Shown piece after piece: positions 11,401-61,865 of a stretch of DNA of 64,000 nucleotides. The stretch covers positions 12,722-76,721 of IMG/VR virus record IMGVR_UViG_3300035142_000030; one strand, given 5' to 3'. Both the position numbers and the translations under genes were made by a program. How positions within the stretch are numbered: the first letter of the stretch is position 1; each line of letters opens with the position of its first letter. The notes under the pieces were generated by a model. The model was not told the DNA's origin and did no database searches. It worked only from the letters and a program-made list of their open reading frames with translations. This DNA comes from a virus.

Positions 11401-14237
11401 GTGATGACTTTAAAAAGAAAGTTAGAGAAGCTGTTAAGTTAGAAAAAGGAGAATCTATAACTAAACGTCGAGAAAGAGGACAACAAAAAATATCTAGTGC
11501 TTTAGATAAATTAGCAAATCTTTCAGGGGCTAAAAAGAATTTTGTAGCAGATAATGATGTAAATACTAATAAGGCAGATATTATTGAAGCTGTTACAGAA
11601 CTTGCTAGTGGGATATTAGACTTAGGAGTTGCCAATATAGAAGATTTAATTCATAAAATAAAAGTTCAAACGAGAGAATATCTTTCTCCAACAGTTATAG
11701 ATGATATTAAGGATAAGGTAATAAAAGCCACTGATGCTGAAAACAATCTGCAAGAGAAGAAGCTAACAGCAAAAGATGTCTTAGATTCTAAAGATATTAA
11801 GAAAGTTGTTGATAAGATATATTCAAAGGCATTAAAAGCAAACAGAGCAGACCTTAAACGAATACTCTTAGAATCTATTGATGTAATATTAGAAGAAGGG
11901 AGTATAGATAGCAATGCTTTTCAAGAACTATATGCTAAAGCAGCAGGCAAACCTTATGTAGATACAGAGCTATCCAATGAAATAAGACAGTCTCAAGAAA
12001 CCATAAATGATGCAAGAAAGATACGTAATAATATTGAGTCATTACTAGATGAGGCTATTGCCGAAACCAAGAAAGATAGTCCAGACACAGAGAGACTAAA
12101 AAGATTAGAAGATCAAATTAAAATACAACAAAAAGAGTACAAGAAAGCTTATAGAGAGGCAGAAAAAGCTAATGCCAACCTATCGAGGATATTTGCTCCA
12201 GAGATGACAGGAGCGCAGAAATTAAGTTCTGGTGTCCAGGCAGGACTTATGACGTTTTCTACATTCCTATTAAACCCATTAGCTAATATGGTATCTACTA
12301 TTCCTAGAACTGTAAAGATGTATATAGAATGGGGACTCGATTATGGAATGTATAGATTAGGAACAATAAAAGAAATATGGTTAGATAAACTAGACAGAAA
12401 AAAATATCCAACACTATATAGAACGATAGCTACATTGCCCGATCCTATAATGACAAGAAATGCACCTGCCTTTAGTAAGTATTATTTTAAAAACATCCCA
12501 TCAGCAGTTAAGCAATCATTTCAAGATGTACTTACAGGACAAACCCCAGATGATGCCTACGTAAGAGAAATTGCAAGGGGGCTACATCCTTTAGATGCAG
12601 CTATAAGAGTTTATGAGAGATTAATAGGCAAGCGCAAAAGAGATTTTGGAAAACTATTAGGAGATATGTGGGAGTCTAGTTTAGGAGCTTATGCAGAAGG
12701 AGTATTTAGACTTTTAAACTTAGGAGATAAACCATTTAGGATTCCTGCTATGTTAGCAAGATTAAATGAGATTGCAACCATTAAAAAGCTAAAAGGGTTA
12801 GAGAGGGAGAAATTCTTAATAAATCCTGATGAAGAATCTTTAAACGATGCTGTGCAAACAGGATTAGAATCAACATTCCAACAAACAACAAAAGCTTCTA
12901 AGATGATTATACAAATGAAGAATTGGGGGAATGATTTACCTTCAGACAATCCATTATCTAAAGTAGCTAAAGGGTTTGCAACATTATTTACTACAACACA
13001 AATACCTTTTGTTAAGACATTAGTAAATATAGCCAATGAAGGCGCTAAATACACATTTCCTTGGTATTCTGGAGTATTAGGGACAAGAGATGTGTTGCGA
13101 GGGAATAGACGGGGAGCATTGGATAACTATTCAAAAGCTATTGTAGCAAACATTATAGGAATGGGTATTGCAGAGCTAATGGCTACAGGTCTGATGACAT
13201 TAGGACGAGGAGGAAGAGAAGAAGATGATGATAAGTATAACAGAAGAAAAGTAGAAAAAGCTGAATATGTTGGTGATTATGGTGCAAACAGATTAAATAT
13301 AACAGGTACATTAAGATATTTAGCAGGAGGCAACCCAGAGTGGAGAGATGATGATGTGACGATTAATTATCAAGGATTAGGAATTATGGGAGTTGCAGCA
13401 TCAGCTAAAGCAGAAGCATATAGAGGATTATCGCCAGAGGAAATACAAGAACAAGCATGGTTTGATTATACATTAGGAATGGCGTGGGGTACGTTGCAGG
13501 GGGTGACAGAACAACCATTTTTTACAGGGCCAGCTACATTCTTGAGAGCATTTACAGAAGGAGGATACGCATTAGATAATTGGATTCAAAATACATTAAG
13601 TGCGTTAAAAGTAGCAGCAATACCAAATACATATGTAGCAATTAATAAATATAGAGATAATAGGATTAGAGAGGTAAGAGAAAAATATTTAGAACAAACT
13701 AAGAGCAAAGGATGGAAGGAAGTTAAGAATAGATTAATATCAGAACTAAAACCAAATTCAGACTTACCAGTTAAGGTATCTATTTATGGAGAAGATGTAG
13801 AGAGATATAAAGATAAGCAGTGGTGGAATTTGATTGATCCGTTAAAAATTAAAAGACATGAGTCAGACTTTGCTTTTAAGGTATTTGATTTATACAATAG
13901 GACTAAAGATGAATCTGTATTCCCATCATATCCTAAAGCATCTATAAAAGATAAGGACATTAGTAATGAATATGTAAAATTAGATGCTAATCTGTATAAC
14001 AAATACGCAAAAACATTGTTGTCATTTAAAGCTACAATTCTGAAAGCAGTAGTTAATTCTGCTGACTGGGAGCAAATGTCAGATAATGATAGAGTTGCTG
14101 TTTTAAGAAAAATACATGATATGTATATGCGAGAAGGAGAAGCTGGTTACATAATGAAAAAGGTTTTTATCGCACAAAATTATGAAGAGCTAAAATTATT
14201 AGCAGAAAAACAAAAGAAAGAAAAAGAAGATAATTAA
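8472..14237 (+). CDS. Large internal virion/ejection protein
   Basis: 1921 aa, helical/coiled-coil with hydrophobic segments; third gene of the ejection trio. Confidence 0.6.
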   Translation: MSTQKPILPGLEGSNVSNKPILPGLDVKKKEFTEEQLKEAETSLKGYSVVSQELKSEVPSITKESTELDIVQEQIKNITDLRDKAQAERMSYAQRKISLEREKKQLERQLSSLRGSLSSPTGRTSVKIDKSKQQIQERLKEINDEFKVSDQDLQTTIDKERDLEQAHDFLKKSETLLEQPNDNSLKTFKEGLFSPLAKDFFTLGVSQMASQYNIMDIANKYREEGEEALSKEERATLGAYGMFLLANQQPQSVTFNVGKAIAEMIPYMAQFALTGGVGDLAKGATQTLLKAGTKKGIQKALSQGTAFAAGALARTPLMTMTQEGYARRRTGLVEPKLTNEGIEGEVKAGTEDSVGEAAYKAFATTFAEVFTEELGGIVTKPLGKLANRIGINSLTKNIDNAIISRIKDVAKFNGVVGEYSEELINSYLQASLTRDQPLSEVWNGKQQLETLLTVGTMGSLFMVANVTLPKSKKNKSKLSDERTKSFDKINDQYKEEVQKISDIEDVTEKATVMEQYLYEKNIESDQLKNIVEYLTYDNTIKSIDVVEDEIRPETKIKADTGTQIVSEEETTTEQKEAVKQAKIKKTEVKDVQEQEKMQEEALQKEQEIQAQVEVLEKEKDSLQKTLERVPEDQKPKIEREISDVNQQIETLKEDAEKITQVRQEVTEEVVQREEQLGDMQKQPKEEAQKKVEPYKTKEEFKKDFLSNEVIGETGKTIAEINLQDTNVPGLKTSEKISAAKNLREGKMTKQAEILKDYLNKAFESGTLEIIPIKAGGKSVKTNMPITEIARPQQVIEETPLTNKRAMGQKALDSKVLNSEVKAKIKQHGIDYFVRGDQVVTEEANEIARIYQVTGNRDGLKSLILDTTNNIKGDTRTELAVAYAEETQKLVDTAKTVEERKVYEQDIADVYIAEMEGATETARDLRSKVRWQRVLQNNPDVVVEYKKRQVNKENQEFLEKNKDDIKTAKQVIDEYLESDDFKKKVREAVKLEKGESITKRRERGQQKISSALDKLANLSGAKKNFVADNDVNTNKADIIEAVTELASGILDLGVANIEDLIHKIKVQTREYLSPTVIDDIKDKVIKATDAENNLQEKKLTAKDVLDSKDIKKVVDKIYSKALKANRADLKRILLESIDVILEEGSIDSNAFQELYAKAAGKPYVDTELSNEIRQSQETINDARKIRNNIESLLDEAIAETKKDSPDTERLKRLEDQIKIQQKEYKKAYREAEKANANLSRIFAPEMTGAQKLSSGVQAGLMTFSTFLLNPLANMVSTIPRTVKMYIEWGLDYGMYRLGTIKEIWLDKLDRKKYPTLYRTIATLPDPIMTRNAPAFSKYYFKNIPSAVKQSFQDVLTGQTPDDAYVREIARGLHPLDAAIRVYERLIGKRKRDFGKLLGDMWESSLGAYAEGVFRLLNLGDKPFRIPAMLARLNEIATIKKLKGLEREKFLINPDEESLNDAVQTGLESTFQQTTKASKMIIQMKNWGNDLPSDNPLSKVAKGFATLFTTTQIPFVKTLVNIANEGAKYTFPWYSGVLGTRDVLRGNRRGALDNYSKAIVANIIGMGIAELMATGLMTLGRGGREEDDDKYNRRKVEKAEYVGDYGANRLNITGTLRYLAGGNPEWRDDDVTINYQGLGIMGVAASAKAEAYRGLSPEEIQEQAWFDYTLGMAWGTLQGVTEQPFFTGPATFLRAFTEGGYALDNWIQNTLSALKVAAIPNTYVAINKYRDNRIREVREKYLEQTKSKGWKEVKNRLISELKPNSDLPVKVSIYGEDVERYKDKQWWNLIDPLKIKRHESDFAFKVFDLYNRTKDESVFPSYPKASIKDKDISNEYVKLDANLYNKYAKTLLSFKATILKAVVNSADWEQMSDNDRVAVLRKIHDMYMREGEAGYIMKKVFIAQNYEELKLLAEKQKKEKEDN

Positions 14238-19355: not shown

Positions 19356-19431
19356 GTTTATAACACAGCGGGATTTATGGGACGGTTTGGGGCTTTTGCC
19401 CCAAAATGGACTATGAAATCACAGTTAGGCA
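19356..19431. repeat. attC-like site (array 1, site 2)
   Basis: GTTTATAACACAGCGGGATTTATGGGACGGTTTGGGGC-TTTT-GCCCCAAAATGGACTATGAAATCACAGTTAGGCA; extra G on the sense strand. Confidence 0.75.
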
Positions 19432-32428: not shown

Positions 32429-32819
32429 TTTTTTCTTTTTTATATTTATAATTAAACCATGCTTCAAATTCTTTTTCTGAAAACTCTCCACTTAATTCTT
32501 TTACGTCTCTATAACATTCTTTTAGCTCTTCTTTTAAAAGTTTTTCAATATCTTCTTCTATTCGATAATACCTTAAAAGGTCTACTCTATAACCAGTGTT
32601 GGATTTCTCCTTGTATTTGTAGAGTATGTTATCAATTTTATCCTCTATCATTAAAATTTTAGATTCTACATCAACAACATCAGATATATTTAAATCTTCT
32701 GCTTGTGTAGTCATAGGATAAAATTCCCATTTAACTTCAGGGTTAAATTCATTCATTTTGCTTAAGAAGTTATCTAAAGCAACTTTATTTTCTGGATTTA
32801 AGTTTTTTATATTTGCCAT
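32412..32819 (-). CDS. Hypothetical protein
   Basis: 135 aa ORF. Confidence 0.55.
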   Translation of the reverse strand: MANIKNLNPENKVALDNFLSKMNEFNPEVKWEFYPMTTQAEDLNISDVVDVESKILMIEDKIDNILYKYKEKSNTGYRVDLLRYYRIEEDIEKLLKEELKECYRDVKELSGEFSEKEFEAWFNYKYKKEKNELFN

Positions 32820-33289
32820 AATAATAAATTTTTATTGGTTATTAATTCTAATATATATTTGTACTGCTCTCAGCGCAACAATTTATAACTACGTATAAAT
32901 TCAAAAACCATGTGATAAGCTCATAAACTTTAAGATTACTCCGTAATCCAGTTTCTGAACTTATACGTTTGAACGTTAGGCTCAATCGCTTGCACTCCTT
33001 CCCTCATTTAAAATTGTATCAATTTGTTATTTTAAATGCTAAAATATCAACAGTTAATCGGATTTAATACGGTTAATTGCTTATATTTAAACAATTTTAA
33101 ATTCCATCCTTACAACCCTCAAAATGCCAAATATTATTTTGCCTAACAATTTGGAAAATAAGCCTTCACACAAGTCCTTTAACGTCTCTTCTATCTGTTG
33201 CATTTTACCTAATATTACAATGCCTAACTAGTAAATAAAGTCCATAAAAATCAAAACTCTGTGTTTATAAAAAATAAAACCACCGCACA

Positions 33290-33586
33290 CTACCAACTGT
33301 TATAGAATCTGATTTTATGCACACCTTTAGGTAAATCTTTAATAAATATCTCATATCCAGAAGAAGCATCGTCATCATATTCTTTATAATGTTTTCCTGC
33401 TTCTAAGTTTATTTCTAATTTTTCATCCAATAAGTATTCTTCTGGATATTCACTGCCAAAATATTCAGCAGTAGCCTTTGGTAAATCTACATCAGCTTCT
33501 AAACAGGCTAATAATACTTTTTTGTGTTTTTGGTAAGTTTCATCCGTATCAGGTATGAATGCTTGTACATGTGTTGACATTCCCAT
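33290..33586 (-). CDS. Hypothetical cassette protein
   Basis: 98 aa ORF in the loop of a degenerate site. Confidence 0.65.
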   Translation of the reverse strand: MGMSTHVQAFIPDTDETYQKHKKVLLACLEADVDLPKATAEYFGSEYPEEYLLDEKLEINLEAGKHYKEYDDDASSGYEIFIKDLPKGVHKIRFYNSW

Positions 33587-33637
33587 CTCTTTTTATTTTT
33601 CCGTCAAACATATTTTTAATTTTTCATAACGTTCAAA

Positions 33638-33874
33638 TTAACAACACAAAAATTCAATCGCATCTTGTTCTTTTTTAAAGGGGCTTTCACATCCTTCAAT
33701 TAAAAAAGATGATTTATATGGGTAAATAACACCAATAACAGATAAGCATCCTTTATTTGCTACAATTAATTTATTTCCACATCTTTTAAATAAGAATTTA
33801 GGAAGTTTAATTTCTTCTTCTTCTTCTACATTATTATTTTTAATAAAATCTAATGACAAAATTTCTTCTTTCAT
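33638..33874 (-). CDS. Hypothetical protein
   Basis: 78 aa ORF downstream of a TACATTTG promoter on the minus strand (~33898-33905). Confidence 0.5.
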   Translation of the reverse strand: MKEEILSLDFIKNNNVEEEEEIKLPKFLFKRCGNKLIVANKGCLSVIGVIYPYKSSFLIEGCESPFKKEQDAIEFLCC

Positions 33875-34027
33875 AATAGTAAGTTTTAAAGTCTAATCAA
33901 ATGTATGGTAAATATTTTTAATATGCAAATTATATCCCTAAAAAGATTAATATAATTACTACAGATTTAATAAAAAGAAATCCTCCTATTATCCAAAGTA
34001 GTGCTACTGCTAGTAATTTTAACTTTT

Positions 34028-34330
34028 TCATAGTTTTCTATTTAAAAATGTAAATAATGCTGGTATATTCTCTCTAAATATAGAAGCATTTAACTCAGTA
34101 CCCTCTATTTCTTCATATAAAGCTGTATAGTCGTCTTTCAATACTTTCATATATATTTGCCCCAAATTAAGACCATTATACTCCTGAGCGAGTATATCTG
34201 CCTTTAAAATGAATTGATTAAATTTAACTTGCTTGTCCATAATTCTATGTTTTATGAGTTGTTTTCTTTTTAGTTCTTTTAGATGTTTATGGTTTAACAT
34301 CTCTAAGTGATCACATATAAAATCATTCAT
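34028..34330 (-). CDS. Hypothetical protein
   Basis: Likely start MNDFICDHL. Confidence 0.45.
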   Translation of the reverse strand: MNDFICDHLEMLNHKHLKELKRKQLIKHRIMDKQVKFNQFILKADILAQEYNGLNLGQIYMKVLKDDYTALYEEIEGTELNASIFRENIPALFTFLNRKL

Positions 34331-34745
34331 TGTTTTTATTAATATCCGATAATTTTTCAAAATAAAAAACTCCATCAAAAGGTTTATTCTCAGTAATTCC
34401 AAAATATTCAGCAACTTTTAATAAATACTTTTTACGCTTAATAGACTTTTCAGTTTTTGGATTTTTAGGTAACTTTCTAAGTCTTTTATGTAAGCCGCCT
34501 AAATACCAAGTTCTGAAAGTTTCTAAATCTAGTGATCCTTTATAATGGTTTATTATTTTTTGAACGGGAAACATATTTTCAATATTATGCGCTCTTTCAT
34601 TCATAGCCGTATTAGTCCACCAATTTCTAATTAGTGGTTCAACATGGTCTACTTGCCAATCATCTTCCAGATCAGTTCCTGAATAGGCACATTTACCATT
34701 GAATTTTGGTCTTATAATTTCTCTATTCTTTTTTGAAATGTACAT
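34323..34745 (-). CDS. HNH endonuclease
   Basis: KCAYSG...WQVDHVEP...NMFP....INHYKG. Confidence 0.8.
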   Translation of the reverse strand: MYISKKNREIIRPKFNGKCAYSGTDLEDDWQVDHVEPLIRNWWTNTAMNERAHNIENMFPVQKIINHYKGSLDLETFRTWYLGGLHKRLRKLPKNPKTEKSIKRKKYLLKVAEYFGITENKPFDGVFYFEKLSDINKNNE

Positions 34746-34803
34746 ATATTACAAAGTTTTCGAATGCTATTAATAAGTTCTATTTGGTAAAGTCTAAGTA
34801 AAA

Positions 34804-35049
34804 TCATACAATCATTTTTTCAATAATAAAAAAAGTTTTTCCAAGTATTAAATAAGGAATTTTACCTGATTCAATTCTGTTTCTAACAGTTTTATCATTT
34901 ACTTTATATTTTTTCACATATTCTGATATTTCAATTAATTCATATTGATTAAACATAAATACAATTAATTGTAAATATTCAGAATAATCGAGATGCTTAT
35001 TTACAATTTTTTGTATATCAAATAGACAATACTTTCTTATATTGTTCAT
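34804..35049 (-). CDS. Small HTH DNA-binding protein (excisionase-like)
   Basis: ISEYVKKYKVNDKTVRNRIESGKIPY. Confidence 0.55.
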   Translation of the reverse strand: MNNIRKYCLFDIQKIVNKHLDYSEYLQLIVFMFNQYELIEISEYVKKYKVNDKTVRNRIESGKIPYLILGKTFFIIEKMIV

Positions 35050-35109
35050 AATATCAATTAGTTAAAATTTATGTTCCACCTATCGATTAGTTAGCTGTAA
35101 TAAAATTTA

Positions 35110-35379
35110 CTATCGTTCTACCCAAAAAGGATATTCCCCTGTATAAACTACTTTATTGCCAGCATTTGGCACGTATTCCCCTCGCTCGGTTTTCATCCAG
35201 TTCATTAGTGGTTCAAATGATGTTTTAGTTTCGTAACCGAAGCATCCATATTTAAACTTTATCTCCTTTTTGAAACCTTCATTTTCAGTTAAATCTCCAA
35301 ATGGTGTAACATAAGGGAATACTACCATATCACCCTCGCACACTTCAATTCCGTTTTTATCAAATATATTACTTTTCAT
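35110..35379 (-). CDS. YopX-family cassette protein
   Basis: DKNGIEVCEGDMV...IKFKYGCF; likely start MKSNIF (track extension is repeat DNA). Confidence 0.7.
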   Translation of the reverse strand: MKSNIFDKNGIEVCEGDMVVFPYVTPFGDLTENEGFKKEIKFKYGCFGYETKTSFEPLMNWMKTERGEYVPNAGNKVVYTGEYPFWVER

Positions 35380-35545
35380 GCCGTAAATTTTACATACCGC
35401 TAACAAGCGGTCATAGTTAATAAAGCCAATTAAGTTTAGTTCGTTGTAGGTTGCGGTAGTGGGTGGCTTTACTAACCATACCGCATCTACGTTACAGACA
35501 ATTGCCCGCACGGCATTCCGCACGGGCTATCGCTCACAACCCACT

Positions 35546-35902
35546 CTAAATTTTGTTTAGAATTTGTTCCAACGCCCAATACTCTGGATTTGCAAGAGCA
35601 GTAACTACATTATTAATATCACAAATACTAATAATCAGCCAAATACATAAAATGATTGCAAGTATAACAATTGCAATCCAATGTCCAACTTCAGTATCAT
35701 TATCATAGCATTTTTGATAATTTTTAGCAAACCATTTTATGTATCGCACATATGGTATAATTAAGAGAAAAGAAATAATGATTAAGGTAATTCCCACAAA
35801 TGCATCAATAGGTGCTTGCTTAATCATAACTCCCCACAAGTATTCGGTCGTTGTACCAAGCTTACTTGCTAAGCTTTCTAATAATGTTGTTAATTCATTC
35901 AT
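35546..35902 (-). CDS. Membrane protein (cassette)
   Basis: LASKLGTTTEYLWGVMIKQA, two TM segments, NPEYWAL; bounded by a 14-bp IR. Confidence 0.7.
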   Translation of the reverse strand: MNELTTLLESLASKLGTTTEYLWGVMIKQAPIDAFVGITLIIISFLLIIPYVRYIKWFAKNYQKCYDNDTEVGHWIAIVILAIILCIWLIISICDINNVVTALANPEYWALEQILNKI

Positions 35903-36280
35903 TTTAATATAATTTAGTTAAACAAAATTTTCTAATGTCAATTGTCTGTAACAGTCGCCTAAATACAGCATTCGTCGCAGCTTCGTATCAAATTGGTTCA
36001 TATCGTATTGAAACCCTAAGGCAACTATCTGTAACTACTAAATACAAGCCAGCGAGACAAGCTCGCCATCGTGTATTTAGGCGACTGTTAGATTCCATAC
36101 TCCCACGGCATTCCCACAAACCCCGCTACGCCCCACCGCACAAAAACCATCGTATGAAATCTAATGGTACGGCAAGTAGTACCACTCGCTCAATACCATT
36201 TACGTATCTGAATCTTATTACTTCCTCCAACGTACAGAATCTAACTGTCAAGTCAGAGGAAAGTAATTTTAGAACTCATT

Positions 36281-36505
36281 CTAAACAATACGTTTACAGC
36301 TTAATTCCCAATGTACTTGTTCGGCAACTTTTAATCTACGAACTGAACTTTTTCCAGTTTCAGGTAATTTGCCTTCATTTAACCATAATAATATCATTTG
36401 TATAAAGTTGCCTGCTGGCAATTCTACTTTTTGACCTTTACCATCTATATAATAAACTGTATCAGTCAATTCGCTGTAAACTAATTCTTTTTTTTGCTCA
36501 ATCAT
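36281..36505 (-). CDS. Hypothetical protein within hairpin loop
   Basis: 74 aa ORF between inner arm (36242) and right arm (36537-36572). Confidence 0.6.
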   Translation of the reverse strand: MIEQKKELVYSELTDTVYYIDGKGQKVELPAGNFIQMILLWLNEGKLPETGKSSVRRLKVAEQVHWELSCKRIV

Positions 36506-36675
36506 TTCTATATAATTTTATCTGTTAATAAACAATGTTCTAAAATTCCCATCCACTACTTGCCGTACCATTGTAACTCAATTGACAGCTCTCCATCCGC
36601 ACAAGGCTTCCCATCCGCCCCGCAAAATACCAAAGCAATTGAGTTACAACGCTCGGAGTTCATTCGATGTAAAAA

Positions 36676-36930
36676 TTATGAAACACCGAGTTTATGAGCT
36701 TCTTCATCAAATGCAATTTTTATATTTGTAATTTCAGTTTGAATTTCTAATAAAAGTTCATGAAATTCTTGTTGCTTATCTTCAATTTGTTTGTCAGCAA
36801 ATTGCATTTTTGAAATTATGTTCTCCTTATAAGCATAAGCAGAGTTCAAATCATTTTTTAATTTTGTGTGCTTAGCTTTAAGAACATCAAGTCTATTTAA
36901 GTAATTACCATACTGTTCTTGAAAATTCAT
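36676..36930 (-). CDS. Coiled-coil hypothetical protein between outer and inner arms
   Basis: 84 aa ORF. Confidence 0.6.
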   Translation of the reverse strand: MNFQEQYGNYLNRLDVLKAKHTKLKNDLNSAYAYKENIISKMQFADKQIEDKQQEFHELLLEIQTEITNIKIAFDEEAHKLGVS

Positions 36931-37121
36931 AATTTTTACCTTTCTATATTTAAGTTTATAATGTTCGATACGTCACAGCGTACAACTACGTGTAATGCAG
37001 AATTGCTACAATCGAATGATGCCGATTTACGGCTTTACTTTGCCTTGCGGCAAATCGCCGCAACTCAGCATACACTCCGAGCGTTATGCGTAAAAATACC
37101 CGCATCCTAGTTCGCTAACGC

Positions 37122-37217
37122 TCACCCATCCGCATCCTCCCACTTATCAATATACAATTTTAGCTTATAAATAAGTATTCCTATTACAATTCCGATTCCT
37201 ATTAATATTAAATTCAT
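37122..37217 (-). CDS. 31-aa membrane peptide cassette (MNLILIGIGIVIGILIYKLKLYIDKWEDADG)
   Basis: Only ORF within the 16-bp IR 37083-37098/37225-37240. Confidence 0.5.
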   Translation of the reverse strand: MNLILIGIGIVIGILIYKLKLYIDKWEDADG

Positions 37218-37374
37218 ATCCAAATATTTTTACGCATAACACCAGAGAAAATATACCGTCCCGCAGGAGACGTTCTCCAGTATCTGCAAGTTTATATTCC
37301 TAATATTTCTACTCATAACTAAAAAATCATAGCACATTAAAATCAAAACTCTGTGTTTAATAAAATAAAGCCAA

Positions 37375-37725
37375 TTAATATATATTCTTTCTACCCCTGT
37401 CAGCGTGCAATGGTACTAAATGATCACACGAACCGCAAAAATGTTTAGCTTTAGTCTCCCAGTAAATTCCTTCAGAATGTGTATCAAAAAGCGAATTACA
37501 ATTGCTACACATCTCAATATGGTCTGGTAGTAAAGGAAAATGTTCTTGTAAATAATAAATTATTGCAAACGCTTTTTTAGCTGTCATCTTTGGCTGATGC
37601 CCACGCTTAAAAGAAAGTTGTTCAGGTAATTCACCTTGTAAAAAATTGTAAAATTCTTCTATCCATTCAAGGTCTGTATCAATCCTCTGATCATTATTTT
37701 TAAGCAATTTTATTTCATTGTACAT
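37375..37725 (-). CDS. Zn-finger hypothetical protein within hairpin loop
   Basis: CSNC ... CGSC; enclosed by TAAAATAAAGCC/GGCTTTATTTTA IR. Confidence 0.65.
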   Translation of the reverse strand: MYNEIKLLKNNDQRIDTDLEWIEEFYNFLQGELPEQLSFKRGHQPKMTAKKAFAIIYYLQEHFPLLPDHIEMCSNCNSLFDTHSEGIYWETKAKHFCGSCDHLVPLHADRGRKNIY

Positions 37726-37865
37726 AAGGCTTTATTTTTAATTAGTACTAAATTTATAATCATATTTTACCTGTAATTTCATCAAGTTTCAATCAATGTT
37801 TTAATTTTACCGTCCCATATTTTCTCTGGTGTTAGAAAACATGCCGTTTCGAACGGACGCAAAAA

Positions 37866-38147
37866 TCATTTTGCTTTCTTATATTTAGAGCCTTTACTAT
37901 TACAAAAATCACATATTGCATTGTTAGGTTTGTTAGATATACATGAACTGCAAAATTTCCATTTTTGCTCATGTTTTCTAACGGTTTCACGTTCGTTTGA
38001 TATTAAAATTTGATTGATAAAGTCATTCAATTGGACTATAGCGTATTCAACAGACAACATATCTAATGTGTCTTCATCTCCAATTGTATCAAGTCTATCC
38101 ATTAATATCTTACGTATTCCATCAGTATAATCTTTTTTATGTTTCAT
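37866..38147 (-). CDS. Hypothetical protein reading through a repeat arm
   Basis: NERETVRKHE is encoded by outer arm 37970-37992; Cys-rich tail. Confidence 0.55.
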   Translation of the reverse strand: MKHKKDYTDGIRKILMDRLDTIGDEDTLDMLSVEYAIVQLNDFINQILISNERETVRKHEQKWKFCSSCISNKPNNAICDFCNSKGSKYKKAK

Positions 38148-38320
38148 AATATCAAATTTTAATTATTAATACTAATTTAGTTTATCAATTCTCAACGTCA
38201 CGATTTTCTAACCAACGTTTATGCTTAATTAAAGCTATCAAACGATGCTCCGTTAAAGCTTTTCTTGCGTTTCACGCAACCGCTTTAACAAAGCATACAC
38301 GTGAAACCGTTAGAGTGCAT

Positions 38321-38608
38321 TTAATCCAAGTGAATAAGCATTTCTCCCCACGCACTTCTACCTTTCACTTTCGGTAGTGATGTGTAGTGTAGTGTCATTC
38401 CTGTAAATTCACACTCTTTGTTATTTAAACTTTTTTTAACCATCCAGTCTTTTGCTTCTTTCCTTATAATATCATCTTCATTGTTTCGATGCCAGCCCAC
38501 GCTAATTATCAAATTACCAATTCTAATTTTACTAAGTGAAAAACGCACTCTAACAATAGATAAAATCCATTGCTTAAAATGTGCTAATTCGTTACGTAAG
38601 TATTTCAT
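38321..38608 (-). CDS. Hypothetical cassette protein starting inside the repeat
   Basis: MKYLRNELAHFKQWILSIVRVR is homologous to the N-terminus of 18377. Confidence 0.6.
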   Translation of the reverse strand: MKYLRNELAHFKQWILSIVRVRFSLSKIRIGNLIISVGWHRNNEDDIIRKEAKDWMVKKSLNNKECEFTGMTLHYTSLPKVKGRSAWGEMLIHLD

Positions 38609-38764
38609 ATCAATGTTTTTATAAGTTTGAAAATTCAGTTCATTAAATCGCAACGTATCTTATCAGAGCCGTTGCACACAATGCCCCATCTAGGGGACGT
38701 GCGACTCGCTATCGCTCCTGTCGCACTCATTGTGTGCAACAGTTTGGCGTTAGCTTGTAAATAA

Positions 38765-38941
38765 TTATTCGCTCAGTACTTCTAAACTATAAGATGATAC
38801 ATAATCAATCTTTTTACCAACTATTACAACTGCATACGGTATATCATCAGCTCCCCGCACGTATCCATCAATGTATCCAACATCTCCAACCTTAAACATC
38901 ATATGTTGGTATTCTTTAATAATTTTAACTTTTGTCTTCAT
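38765..38941 (-). CDS. 58-aa hypothetical protein (MKTKVKIIKEYQH...GYIDGYVRGADDIPYAVV)
   Basis: Clean ORF between duplicated TGTGCAAC cores; below the track size cutoff. Confidence 0.55.
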   Translation of the reverse strand: MKTKVKIIKEYQHMMFKVGDVGYIDGYVRGADDIPYAVVIVGKKIDYVSSYSLEVLSE

Positions 38942-38976
38942 AATTATTTATTTAGTTATTTGTTAATTTCTGCTTA

Positions 38977-39147
38977 CTAGATGGTGCACAATGTGCAACT
39001 AGCGTTTATGCGTAATTGTAATAGGCAATTTCCAATCTCCCAGTAACTTGCGCCTAAACGTTCCAATATCATTTCAGCTTTCTCAAAGCTCCAACTTTTA
39101 TAACATTGATAAAAGTTCCCTTTATAGGTATACATTATATGAATCAT
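38977..39147 (-). CDS. Hypothetical protein ending in a repeat arm
   Basis: MIHIMYTYKG...LGASYWEIG; tail QLRINASCT is encoded by the arm. Confidence 0.5.
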   Translation of the reverse strand: MIHIMYTYKGNFYQCYKSWSFEKAEMILERLGASYWEIGNCLLQLRINASCTLCTI

Positions 39148-39532
39148 AATTTTATATTTAAAGTTTGTACTAAATTTTAACAATACCCTAAAAATCCTTC
39201 CCATATCTTTCGGAGTGTTATGGCTCAATTTCGCTACGCTCTACGATGACTTCATTTAATTGAGCCATAACGAGACAACGTATGAAGTACAGGCTCAGTG
39301 TACTATATTAATTCTATTTTAATTTATCCGCTCAACTAGAGCATAACTACATATAAGCGTAATACTATGAGCCTTACTTCAAAGCTCTCAGAATATTTCA
39401 CCGATAAAAATCGGCTCATATTCCTACGCTTATACGTTGTCTCGTTAGTAGCAAGCGGGTTCAGTTCTCGTATCAAACATTGTGCGTATTTGAAAGAAAA
39501 AGAAAAGCCCCGCCCGCTTTTGGCAAAGCCAA

Positions 39533-40147
39533 TTAGGATAAAGCTGCAAGTAGTTCAGTTACCCACTTATTTGAATCTTCACATCTTTTCAATTCTGCAT
39601 TGTGTTCTTTTGTGTGGTATTCAATATCCCAGTTGGCATCTGCAATCATATCCTTTCTAATATCAGCAGCATTTATGTTTTCTAATTGAGAATCTATCTT
39701 GCTTAACTCATCATCGTGGTACTTTGTGTCTCCATCGTGGTCAATAGTTGTCACTATCTGTTCAATCATAAATTTAGCAATTCCTTCGTGGTCTTTTGTT
39801 GGTGGTTTGAAATCCCTTGCTTTAATTAAAAACTCATCAAGTTTAACCCTTGCTTTTTTTATTTCCTTAATTCTTTCGGTGTGATAGGTTCTACTTTCTT
39901 TTATCTGTTTTTTGCGAGAGGCAATTATTTCAGAATCGGTAAGTTTCTCAGCTTGATTTAATTTTTCATTAGCTGTTTTTAACGCTTTAATATGGTAATC
40001 GCTCGGCGTTCTTGGCACGTACTCTTTATTCATACTTTCATCTCTCATATGTATAGTTGCTCCAAAAGCTCTCATACATTGTTTTGCAAAATCTTGGAAT
40101 GTTTCGGTTGTGCCGTCAATAATTCCTGCTGTGTAACCTGTTGGCAT
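39533..40147 (-). CDS. Conserved phage hypothetical protein (MPTGYTA-type)
   Basis: 204 aa helical; MPTGYTAGI..TFQDFA..CMRAFGA. Confidence 0.7.
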   Translation of the reverse strand: MPTGYTAGIIDGTTETFQDFAKQCMRAFGATIHMRDESMNKEYVPRTPSDYHIKALKTANEKLNQAEKLTDSEIIASRKKQIKESRTYHTERIKEIKKARVKLDEFLIKARDFKPPTKDHEGIAKFMIEQIVTTIDHDGDTKYHDDELSKIDSQLENINAADIRKDMIADANWDIEYHTKEHNAELKRCEDSNKWVTELLAALS

Positions 40148-45859: not shown

Positions 45860-47040
45860 TTAATAGTTAATTTTAGTTGATTTAAAGGCCTGTATTTAAT
45901 CGTACAGGCTTTTTTAATATAATATACCTCATAGGATATAAAATAGCCTTAAAAGCCTTAAATTATATCTTTTCGGGTATAATTACACGCATAAACTAGG
46001 AATTAACAATAATTATAACTATATTTGTAACTCTATTAGTAATAGTACCCAGAACCAAATAACAATTAATATGAATTAACGAGATGTAGACCGGCCTGGC
46101 GATAAATCCAGAAGAACACACAAGAAAAGGAATTATAAAAACAAGTGTTAAACTTATTTTTATTGTACAAATAGCCTGGTTTAAATTAGATCAGGTTATT
46201 TTTTATGCTTAAAGATTAAGTTTATTAAGTCTAAATAAACGTTAAAAGCCTAGATATTAAGATTTAAACCCTCTGAGAATTGAATATTTGAAACGCTCAT
46301 GCACTATGATACTGTACAGATTACTCTCAAGGACTTAAATATTAAGAACTTAAACAAATAACACGCATAAACCATAAATCAAACATAAAATCCTTTCAAG
46401 GATATTACATATATAAGAAAGAGACAATAACAAAAAAAAACATCAATATAATAAATAATAAATACCAGCAAACTATTTAACAATTATTATATATTTCTGT
46501 TTGCTGGATAGAATAGAGTAAGTATTTGGACAGGAAATAGATATAAATAGTATTTTAACTCCGTTAGAATTGGATATTCATATCTATTGTGTAATATGAT
46601 AGATGATATTATAAAGAATCTGTATTAAATAGATAGAATATAGTGTTATTTCAGCTAAAATATACCTTTTTGACTCACATTTTTAGTTAAAATATCATAT
46701 TTAATAATCAGGCACTTATATAATTTTGGTCTCAGTTCCACACAGCGCGAAGACCAACTTTTGAAGATTTAATATACCTCAGTTATTATCTTAGATATAT
46801 AGAGAGGATTTTAACAGGATATTAGTATTATTAAAGAATGGGCAAGCTCATCAACTAATAATATATAGCATACTACTATGTTATACCAAGTGTTTCAAAA
46901 TGGAACACTTTTAGGTAAAATAAACCCAACCTATTTTTTAGGTTGGGAACAAAAAAGGCTGTAAGGCTTATAAATACTAAAGAATTGTGAAAAACGATAA
47001 ATTGATTATTTGTCCAATAATTAGTATTTTGTTAATATGA
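45860..47040. other. Long AT-rich non-coding region (candidate origin or genome-end region)
   Basis: No ORF of 60 aa or more; terminator-like hairpins ~45886 and ~46172; repeated ACGCATAAA. Confidence 0.4.
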
Positions 47041-47050
47041 TTATGAGACA

Positions 47051-47647
47051 TTATAGCACATCAGGCTTGAACTCAAAGATATATGCTTTATGCCTAGTTT
47101 CATCTTTTAAATATCGATTAATTGTTTTGCGATCTACACCGAAATGTTTAGCCGCATCGACAACAGAATCAAACTGTAATTGTTCCCTGGTTTGTATGTG
47201 TGTGGTTAATATAGGTTTTTTCTTTGCATTTGACATTTTTATGCGTGTTTCAAGGTTGTGCGGAGGTTTTATTTTGCCTTTCCAATAACTATTCCTTTGT
47301 CCTGTCTGAAAGGATTTTAATATGTTTTCGCTATGAGTTACCCACTCTAAGTTAGATATATGATTATTTAACTTATCGTGGTCAATATGGTTAACCTCTT
47401 TCTTATATTTATTGTCGCTATATCCCTTGAAAGTGATTAATACGAGCCTATGAGCGAAGAATATCTTTGTGCGTGGTTTATCTCTGTTCTCTTCTGTCTT
47501 CTCTTGCGTAAGATGGTATAATATATAGCCACAACTATTTAGTTGAGGTTTTAAGAATCTTTGCTTTCTGATAGAATACACATCACCGTTTTCATATATA
47601 TAATATAAGTTTTCAAATCCTGGTAACATTATTGTTTTTCTTTTCAT
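47051..47647 (-). CDS. NUMOD4-HNH homing endonuclease with NUMOD3/NUMOD1-like tail
   Basis: GFENLYYIYENGDV, HRLV, VNHIDHDKLNNHISNLEWVT, FDSVVDAAKHFG. Confidence 0.9.
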   Translation of the reverse strand: MKRKTIMLPGFENLYYIYENGDVYSIRKQRFLKPQLNSCGYILYHLTQEKTEENRDKPRTKIFFAHRLVLITFKGYSDNKYKKEVNHIDHDKLNNHISNLEWVTHSENILKSFQTGQRNSYWKGKIKPPHNLETRIKMSNAKKKPILTTHIQTREQLQFDSVVDAAKHFGVDRKTINRYLKDETRHKAYIFEFKPDVL

Positions 47648-50230: not shown

Positions 50231-51211
50231 ATGAACGAAAGTAGCAATAACAGTTTTTTGAGCGTTGGTGGAAAAGCCGAAGGGATAAATGTAGTAAGTA
50301 TGTTTGATGGTGCAAGCTGTGGACAAATAGCTTTAGAAAAAGCAAAAGTAATGGTAAAAAATTATGTTGCTTCTGAAATAAAGCCACATGCTATAGTAAC
50401 ATCTAAATTACATTACCCAAACACTATACATGTTGGAGATGTTAGATACTTGCATGTAGTAAATACGGGTGTTGAAGTTAATATTAATAGAGCACAATAT
50501 AGAACAATAGGAATTGGATTAATTGATTTAATAATCGGTGGTAGCCCCTGCAAAGGGATAAGCAGATTAAACAAAAATCAAGAAGGGTTAAAGCACAAGG
50601 AAAGTATTTTATTTTGGGAGTTTGTGAGGGTTTTAGAACAAGCTAAACTGTGTAACCCAGATGTATATTTTTTACTTGAAAATACGCACGGAAATAAAGA
50701 AGCAACTCAAATAATAACTGAGACATTAGGCGTTAAACCTATTAGCATTAACAGTAAACTTGTTACAGCACAAAATAGACCTAGATACTATTGGACAAAT
50801 ATACCAGGCATTGAGCAACCAAAAGACAAAGGAATAACGACCAACGATGTTTTTAAATACAACGGGGACATAGTAGATGATTGTAGGGTAAAATGGCTTA
50901 ATAACGATAGTGGTAAAAACTCTGTAAAAAAAGGATACACAAGAATAAACCCTTACCCTAAAAGTGGTTGCTTAACTGCCAATGGACATAAAAAATGGAA
51001 CGAGAATTATTTGTATAAAGATGGTGTGTACAGATATTTATCTAAAGAAGAGCTAGAGGTATTGCAAACATTTCCAATTGGATATACAAAACATTTAAGT
51101 TATGATGATGCTTATGATTTAATTGGCGAGGCTTGGACGATTGATATTATAGCACATATATTTTCTTATTTGCCGATAGGCAAAAGAGGGGGAGAAAAAG
51201 ATGTATGTTAA
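50231..51211 (+). CDS. dcm: C5 cytosine DNA methyltransferase
   Basis: SMFDG (motif I), GGSPC (IV), FLLEN (VI), QNRPRYYW (VIII). Confidence 0.9.
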   Translation: MNESSNNSFLSVGGKAEGINVVSMFDGASCGQIALEKAKVMVKNYVASEIKPHAIVTSKLHYPNTIHVGDVRYLHVVNTGVEVNINRAQYRTIGIGLIDLIIGGSPCKGISRLNKNQEGLKHKESILFWEFVRVLEQAKLCNPDVYFLLENTHGNKEATQIITETLGVKPISINSKLVTAQNRPRYYWTNIPGIEQPKDKGITTNDVFKYNGDIVDDCRVKWLNNDSGKNSVKKGYTRINPYPKSGCLTANGHKKWNENYLYKDGVYRYLSKEELEVLQTFPIGYTKHLSYDDAYDLIGEAWTIDIIAHIFSYLPIGKRGGEKDVC

Positions 51212-61780: not shown

Positions 61781-61865
61781 GGAAGATTGACTGAAAGGTA
61801 AGGTGCTGGTTTGCTAAACCAAGGCTAGGGTAATACCTAAACAGGCTCGATACCTGTATCTTCCG
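61781..61865 (+). tRNA. tRNA-Ser(GCT)
   Basis: GGAAGAT/ATCTTCC acceptor; TTGCTAA loop; long variable arm. Confidence 0.8.

Follow-up and report, generated by a model that had tools for sequence, protein, structure and literature searches.

We suggest, with roughly two chances in three, that positions 35091-39447 of the phage DNA analysed here are an orphan array of about nine gene cassettes, part of a phage-borne system that works like an integron. The DNA (hereafter the window, 64,000 nt, positions 12,722 to 76,721 of IMG/VR record IMGVR_UViG_3300035142_000030) comes from a wetland metagenome and makes up 64 kb of a phage genome that is complete at 76.7 kb and has direct terminal repeats. 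The array itself occupies ~4 kb and is tiled without gaps by small units, each bounded by its own inverted repeat. Its anatomy, the co-variation of its repeat arms between phages and the association of related arrays with a tyrosine recombinase gene are observed directly. G+C content of the window is ~30%, and from 28 to 47 kb it is the minus strand that carries the genes.

An alternating chain of heads and bodies

The inverted-repeat pairs listed in the original prediction, which had been made from the letters alone, are all present at their coordinates: 35491/35939 (14/14), 37083/37225 (16/16), 37831/37970 (13/13), 38309/38545 (10/10), 38671/38728 (13/13) and 39217/39258 (14/14), together with 36087/36152 (refined to 13 bp with one G:U) and 36571/36636 (refined to 14/14). 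Beyond that list, further perfect pairs were found at 35949/36072 (19 nt), 36163/36555 (18), 36648/37074 (12), 37237/37817 (18), 37977/38299 (16) and 39268/39432 (16). The range first proposed, 32881-39450, is borne out for 35091-39447 but not for 32881-35090, where there are no such units and tightly packed genes show only weak 7-bp GTTAGGC/GCCTAAC matches. An unpaired base had also been described in several arms; GCGGTcATAG at 35412 does carry one (a bulged G on the gene-sense strand), while no pairing partner was found for the other two examples.

The arms measure 10-19 nt (most 12-19) and are mostly perfect, those of neighbouring units overlapping by 2-6 nt in a TAAC/GTTA core of 3-4 nt. 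Between 35491 and 38554 every unit abuts the next (units a, b, c, d, e, n, f, g, h, i and j), giving a chain of at least 8; units k, l and m follow at 38671-39447, and on the left side units z and y (imperfect) occupy 35091-35494. Along the minus, gene-sense strand two types of unit alternate: heads, which are TAAC...GTTA hairpins, and bodies, which have the form GTTA-X...X'-TAAC. Heads z, b, m, g, i and n start with TAACG, TAACA or AACG and end in GTTA, and bodies a, f, h, j and l have private complementary arms of 10-16 nt. AAC/GTT occurs at nearly every junction, usually as TAAC/GTTA, with AAT/ATT at one junction pair. From these features and the comparisons below we read a cassette as running from TAAC to TAAC, as a head plus the body behind it (C1 to C9, Table 1).

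The position of the gene varies among cassettes, being within the body (units a and y), in the loop of the head (g, n and d) or across the core (C3 and C4). Units without a gene fold into strong hairpins (z-scores -3.3 to -6.6), the exception being unit c (-1.8). Just within both arms of head g lies an 8-9-nt direct repeat, GGGACGGT(A) (37255-37262 and 37808-37816), which resembles a footprint left when a gene was inserted in the loop of a short hairpin. At the matching position in L241, a related viral locus discussed below, the motif ATATGGGACGG is likewise kept.

The original prediction had left open how these inverted repeats compare with shuffled sequence, and both the real chain and the repeat counts exceed the shuffles. 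Dinucleotide shuffles (n=30) gave chains of two to three units and once five, from 10-mers only, against the real chain of at least 8. Perfect repeats of at least 12 nt occur 41 times in the window where block shuffles average 16.5, and those whose outer end is GTT/AAC occur 15 times where the shuffles average 1.5. The tiling and the common cores are far beyond chance.

Arms co-vary between phages

Head z is an 88-nt non-coding hairpin (35396-35484, minus sense) that is absent from Rfam. Exact-pattern scans placed it in 11 viral stretches, 6 contigs from metagenome-assembled genomes (MAGs) and 54 metagenome contigs, which with the window amount to 58 distinct contexts. Identity across contexts is 80-98%, reaching 94-98% in otherwise unrelated viral contigs. 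The stem consists of 5 bp, a bulged G (kept in 12 of 16 copies) and 16 bp. On the coding strand it retains two conserved G:U pairs, and at the apex base changes compensate one another (GCCA/TGGC, GCCGTG/CACGGC, GCCCG/CGGGC, GGCTG/CAGCC). Head z always lies 15-25 nt upstream of a start codon. At its 3' end, ACCGC-TTGTTA-GCGGT, an alternative small hairpin is possible, with the core exposed in the loop.

To the left of head z, similarity ends at (T)AACG and the preceding sequence is different almost everywhere; to the right it ends at TTGTTA, after which at least 14 different arm families follow. Among the 46 contexts with enough downstream DNA, 33 (72%) close this arm 190-400 nt downstream, after one small gene, with a perfect complement of 9-10 nt followed by TAAC, compared to ~10% of random GTTA sites in the same loci. 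Such private arms are as predicted by a crossover at the core of a folded site. Across 185,579 species genomes the scan found head z only in the six MAG contigs, which carry scattered taxon labels and are probably mis-binned phage DNA; it gave no evidence for host chromosomal arrays of this family.

Blocks common to unrelated phages likewise stop at the cores. Loci L010 and L016 have in common a head and a 68-aa gene at 92% identity, in a block ending exactly at the C of TAAC, and L014 has the same head and arms enclosing a different gene. The gene of head g (cassette C5) has 94 homologues and was followed in 50 viral loci. In L035/L036 and L031 it lies within a regular head-body chain whose arms show a compensated swap, GCG/CGC in L035 becoming CGC/GCG in L031, and whose heads have G:T wobbles on the coding strand only. 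In a cluster of gut phages (L042-L070) the homologue is found without the inverted-repeat and core layout, so that this gene exists outside the cassette system too.

Cassette C4 (38314-37831) is homologous to L241:110-660, which is followed, 450 nt on, by a recombinase gene. Between the two, conservation covers the head's non-coding part and the 3' end but not the N-terminal coding part, and the only homologue of the 93-aa C4 protein matches just the C-terminal module, beginning at the arm. Arm i reads AACGGTTTCACGT/ACGTGAAACCGTT in the window and AACCCTTCACGT/ACGTGAAGGGTT in L241; arm h reads TTAGAAAACATG/CATGTTTTCTAA and TTAGGAAAACATG/CATGTTTTCCTAA, respectively, with a compensated 1-bp insertion. 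One arm of each pair lies within coding sequence, yet both pairs co-vary with L241. Complete tiling, genes in loops and a core inside the coding sequence of two cassettes with compensated arms suggest that the exchange unit need not be a whole gene.

It had further been proposed that differences between related phages would break at the AAC/GTT cores. Using the ends of blocks of at least 88% identity between non-collinear arrays (551 distinct ends), 36% fell within 2 nt of TAAC/GTTA compared to 9.9% of random positions. This enrichment supports the model but is partly circular, since a head by definition ends in cores and most of the common blocks are heads. Of the left block ends in recombinase-linked arrays, 58% lay within 3 nt of TAAC (null 6%).

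Related arrays adjoin a tyrosine recombinase gene

Profile searches detected no tyrosine (PF00589) or serine (PF00239) recombinase and no Y1 transposase (PF01797) in the complete 76.7-kb genome, where a local profile built from 30 Bacteroidales Xer-like proteins and run on all fetched loci also found nothing. The lack of an integrase first remarked for the window alone thus extends to the whole genome. Among related loci, L146:94-900 encodes a 268-aa tyrosine recombinase (PF00589, 1.3e-29) with an additional N-terminal SAM-like domain. Its best NCBIfam models are XerA and integron integrase, all below cut-off (TIGR02249, 145 against 265 bits; NF011946 also below), and its nearest solved structure is archaeal XerA (4a8e, 1e-35), while VchIntIA aligns in two stretches. 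Beside this gene are ~20 bodies, whose 10-nt arms are private, as well as a copy of head z (L146:8540-8621, 83%); another recombinase-linked array, L206, has one head of the head-z family.

Relatives of the L146 recombinase, 58-82% identical, are encoded by 206 viral contigs, many of them in 100-360 kb genomes. In the flanks of 80 of these loci, perfect GTTA...TAAC units numbered 261 in 307 kb upstream of the recombinase gene and 24 in 443 kb downstream (a ~16-fold difference in density), with 14 of the 24 downstream units coming from L146. At least three upstream units were present in 39 of the 52 loci that have at least 2 kb of upstream DNA. The last unit precedes the recombinase gene by a median of 51 nt, and the cassette open reading frames (ORFs) are overwhelmingly co-directional with it (183 vs 6). 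The 261 units have 106 distinct arm 10-mers. Among the 91 distinct heads, 88 start with TAACG, endings in ..TGTTA are the commonest (71 of 91 tallied), the median length is 124 nt, and folding is better on the gene-sense strand in 79 against 10. Related arrays beside a recombinase gene suggest how such phages trade accessory genes.

Other features of the window and its relatives

A nucleotide search of the window against an annotated phage collection gave no match. No relatives were found for the flanking 312-aa kinase-like gene; for the cassette genes of 93 and 118 aa, viral contigs yielded none or marginal ones, and none of the cassette proteins matched a Pfam family. Rfam returned nothing beyond chance level in 32500-40000, the only credible matches in the window being tRNAs, which include one tRNA-like match at 61781-61865 additional to the five genes of Table 1.

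A direct repeat of ~38 nt occurs at 33246-33284 and 37335-37372 (minus sense GG[CT]TTTATTTT..AAACACAGAGTTTTGATTTT.ATG), directly after the stop codons of the unrelated small genes 33290-33586 and 37375-37725, and may be a terminator or promoter module. The HNH_3 gene at 47054-47647 is partly enclosed by a 12-nt core-type repeat pair at 46360/47238. Relative to L015, L016 has a 476-nt insertion (L016:1152-1628) that separates two conserved genes and encodes an HNH_3-type homing endonuclease, the TAATGAGAGA junction being present as a short repeat; we rejected this indel as a cassette event, the insertion being unrelated to cores. Palindromic structures of ~570 bp, each made of three nested inverted-repeat pairs of 11-17 nt, were seen in the relatives L003 (2935-3504), L012 (8005-8564) and L010 (2542-3105), and could be an origin or a large structured element.

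Table 1 Positions of the cassettes and of other features in the window
Feature	Start	End	Strand	Description
C1	39217	39447	-	Head m 39268-39447, arms TAACGAGACAACGTAT/ATACGTTGTCTCGTTA 16/16; mini-body l 39217-39271, GTTATGGCTCAATT/AATTGAGCCATAAC 14/14; no clear gene
C2, irregular	38671	39220	-	Genes ~38977-39150 and ~38765-38941; body with imperfect arms 38977-38999/38671-38693 (19/23); left arm duplicated at 38728-38740, forming 70-nt hairpin k (13/13)
C3	38309	38674	-	Head 38551-38674, CAACGG start, TGTTA end; body j 38309-38554, GTTAGAGTGC/GCACTCTAAC 10/10; gene ~38321-38608 begins within head and runs across core
C4	37831	38314	-	Head i 37977-38314 (16/16); body h 37831-37982 (13/13); 93-aa zinc-ribbon gene 37866-38147 crosses core
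C5	37083	37834	-	Head g 37237-37834 (18/18), 116-aa gene 37375-37725 inside its loop; body f 37083-37240 (16/16), 31-codon ORF for a hydrophobic peptide, ~37122-37217
C6	36571	37085	-	Head n 36648-37085, AACGCTCGGAGT/ACTCCGAGCGTT 12/12, 84-aa gene 36676-36930; hairpin body e 36571-36649 (14/14)
C7	36087	36572	-	Head d 36163-36572 (18/18), 74-aa gene 36281-36505, with AAT/ATT as core variant at each end; hairpin body c 36087-36165, 13 bp including one G:U (minus strand)
C8	35491	36090	-	Head b 35949-36090 (19/19); body a 35491-35952, GTTACAGACAATTG/CAATTGTCTGTAAC 14/14, 118-aa membrane-protein gene 35546-35902
C9	35091	35494	-	Head z 35402-35494; body y, imperfect arms (~9/11), gene 35110-35379 (90 aa; true start ATG 35379, not GTG at 35523 of the annotated 137-aa ORF)
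Second short chain, three abutting units	48896	49516	+	GTTAGGGTT 9; TAACGCCTTAAAGC 14; CGTTACAAAACCAT 14; adjoins DNA methyltransferase gene 50231-51211
Single body unit	19424	19672	+	GTTAGGCATAAAA...TTTTATGCCTAAC 13/13; canonical class-1-like core and inverse core
Free-standing homing-endonuclease-type gene	47054	47647		HNH_3 + NUMOD1/4
Free-standing homing-endonuclease-type gene	40829	41359		Weak HNH_3
Free-standing homing-endonuclease-type gene	60710	61180		T5orf172/MUG113
Five tRNA genes	61462	62293		ARAGORN: Leu-TAA, Leu-TAG, Ser-TGA, Gln-TTG, Ile-GAT

Comparison with integrons and other cassette systems

attC-site clusters that come without an integron integrase (CALINs, at least two predicted attC sites) have been reported in virulent phages, some of them recombined by IntI1 (Qi et al. 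2023, PMC9892861), while classical integrons are nearly absent from Bacteroidetes (PMC9024848). The present array is similar to both in having mostly single-gene, co-oriented cassettes separated by imperfect hairpins, AAC/GTT cores at the hairpin foot (often GTTA/TAAC, and once, elsewhere in the window, the canonical GTTAGGC/GCCTAAC, at 19424/19660), and one strand that folds better. The complementary cassette ends are what is expected of a crossover inside the R box of a folded site. Like a CALIN, the array lacks a recombinase, and its relatives have a tyrosine recombinase at the array end.

There are also differences from integrons. The linked enzyme is a simple tyrosine recombinase of 268 aa, nearest to archaeal XerA and under the integron-integrase cut-offs, and there is no IntI; its gene stands at the downstream end of the array and points in the same direction, whereas that of an integron is divergent at attI. 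Genes lie on the folding (coding) strand with the hairpin preceding the gene, whereas the attC bottom strand is antisense to the ORF and attC follows the gene at its 3' side. Arms are 9-19 nt long instead of the 7 nt of attC, and genes may sit inside the hairpin loop or cross the core. The junctions often depart from the attC box pattern RYYYAAC/GTTRRRY, e.g. in GTTACAG and GTTATGC. In size (57-141 nt, imperfect), heads z (93 nt, bulged G) and b (142 nt) fit attC, while heads m, i, n, d and g have 180-598 nt and perfect stems of 12-18 bp, all but m with genes or gene parts in the loop. Since the folding strand, the enzyme and the arm length differ from attC and IntI, we set the system outside the integron family, as a variant of the integron kind. 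No core-anchored unit in Polaribacter phage P12002L, a CALIN phage known from print, had perfect arms of at least 11 nt. The originally proposed combination of excisable attC-like cassettes and an unlinked tyrosine recombinase is supported by the comparisons made here, with the amendments that the sites are not canonical attC and that the enzyme is not IntI.

Another comparison is offered by rAID-1 of Bacteroidales, in which arrays lie beside a XerD-like recombinase (Ross et al. 2019, 10.1101/471110) and whose authors described repetitive intergenic sequences as reminiscent of integrons. Both systems have a XerD-family tyrosine recombinase adjoining long arrays of small, co-oriented, low-GC genes. 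Unlike the phage arrays, rAID-1 is chromosomal, has its recombinase at the 5' end and carries immunity-gene cargo; the structure of its sites is unpublished. Around 30 Xer-like genes of 26 Bacteroidales genomes no GTTA/TAAC units were seen in the 1.5-kb flanks, a test too weak to speak for or against a link to rAID-1. Promoter early stem-loops (PeSLs) of T4-type phages are described as promoter-plus-terminator motifs (Arbiol et al. 2010, PMC2839356; Comeau et al. 2014, PMC4122927). As here, small accessory ORFs in the hyperplastic regions of virulent phages are flanked by conserved stem-loops, for which modular shuffling has been proposed. Going by these descriptions, PeSLs differ in acting via homologous recombination, with no private complementary ends, asymmetric core or dedicated recombinase. 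Our literature search turned up no phage system that combines this recombinase with this site architecture.

Proposed mechanism and alternative explanations

Four observations support a site-specific, integron-like cassette system: tiling that leaves no gaps, private arms that co-vary, asymmetric cores that are conserved and, in many diverse phages, a close and oriented adjacency to a dedicated tyrosine recombinase. By analogy with integrons, and given the recombinase link, we propose that a single coding strand would serve as the substrate, with a crossover at the core, circular intermediates and an enzyme supplied in trans. In an excised circle, X' and X would flank the head, creating one long folded site with the core at its centre, at which a small Xer-like tyrosine recombinase would exchange strands. 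Cassettes could thus be cut out, inserted and reordered while each unit retains its own matching ends, which would account for the gap-free tiling. The present orphan array would be mobile only if a co-infecting phage, or possibly the host, supplied the recombinase, and would otherwise be a frozen record of past exchanges.

Several observations weigh against this proposal. No recombination product, excision or circle was observed. No tyrosine recombinase was found in this genome or in the 30 related viral records first searched (at least 90% complete in ten cases), leaving the array an orphan, CALIN-like one whose enzyme would have to act in trans. Arms here are mostly 12-19 nt compared to 9-10 nt in the recombinase-linked arrays, and the L146 recombinase gene faces its array (convergent), while elsewhere the gene is downstream and in the same direction as the cassettes. 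The breakpoint statistic, besides being partly circular, includes only nine blocks of at least 300 nt. Finally, folding of the coding strand, G:U-type pairs and a position before start codons fit a role in RNA equally well, and such a role for heads and arms may coexist with one in DNA.

The rival RNA explanation holds that heads and private arms act within a polycistronic early transcript. The 5' and 3' ends of each small mRNA would pair and so close it, and stable hairpins would set it apart from its neighbours, serving to process the RNA, shield it from exonucleases or control its translation. Cleavage or recognition would take place at the cores, and mosaicism would arise by ordinary homologous recombination in the conserved heads. 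We regard this as unlikely, even though it is favoured by the better folding of heads on the coding strand (79 vs 10), the conserved G:U pairs of head z, the placement of heads within transcripts 15-25 nt upstream of start codons and the existence of orphan-array phages without a recombinase; co-variation of arms, too, indicates selection for pairing without specifying the molecule. What it leaves unexplained is one conserved asymmetric 4-nt core common to adjacent helices, the 16-fold enrichment that dozens of diverse phages show immediately upstream of a tyrosine recombinase gene, and a head-plus-gene block that ends exactly at TAAC; nor does it give a reason for an arm being retained within coding sequence despite amino-acid changes.

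We consider it improbable that the heads are small mobile or recombination-prone intergenic elements, in the style of MITEs (miniature transposable elements with inverted repeats), repetitive extragenic palindromes (REPs) or T4-like PeSLs, which provide portable homology for phage-phage recombination and leave gene-flanking arms as a by-product. The occurrence of one family at 80-98% identity in 58 contexts on otherwise unrelated contigs would suit such elements, as would the prevalence of heads among the blocks common to arrays, and PeSL-mediated shuffling in T4-like phages is, as described, a published precedent (PMC2839356, PMC4122927). Target-site duplications are absent, however, and the arms outside the heads are private, perfectly paired and co-varying, which an inserting element does not create; the recombinase link is also left without explanation. 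We give almost no credence to an origin by chance, from low-complexity sequence or as an artefact of assembly or amplification, for instance through chimeric inverted joins. The contig does come from a single metagenome at ~12x depth, and only one public read run, kept as contigs and probably the source, contains the stretch. Against this, shuffles fail to reproduce the pattern, the source-run contig spans the array region without break or joint, and the same architecture with co-varying arms is present in independent samples and contigs.

A transposon with terminal inverted repeats, or a MITE, was rejected because arms differ from unit to unit and no direct repeats flank the unit ends. Invertons and shufflons, which would need shared repeats, and IS200/IS605-type ends, for which there is no Y1 transposase, were dropped. 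tRNA-like genes, one large structured RNA and chimeras from multiple displacement amplification were also considered and dropped.

Implications for phage mosaicism

Phage genomes are mosaic, with small early and accessory genes turning over fastest, and this is usually explained by illegitimate or short-homology recombination. Many of these fast-turnover small genes are candidates for host takeover or anti-defence functions. If the integron-like reading of the array is true, phage-borne site-specific cassettes would be a defined and testable mechanism of mosaicism, with some phages proposed to contribute a minimal tyrosine recombinase dedicated to the task, and others arrays that have no enzyme. 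The integron principle would then reach further than IntI and attC, and experimenters would gain a simple pairing of enzyme and site.

Tentatively, and at somewhat less than even odds, we further propose that many tailed phages, including those with 100-360 kb genomes, may run their own integron-like gene capture with a minimal Xer-type recombinase and sites folded from the coding strand. Cassettes would then comprise whole genes, genes inside a hairpin and half-genes joined across a core, and orphan arrays would be mobilised in trans at co-infection. If true, this would represent a general engine of accessory-gene and domain mosaicism in phages, so far undescribed.

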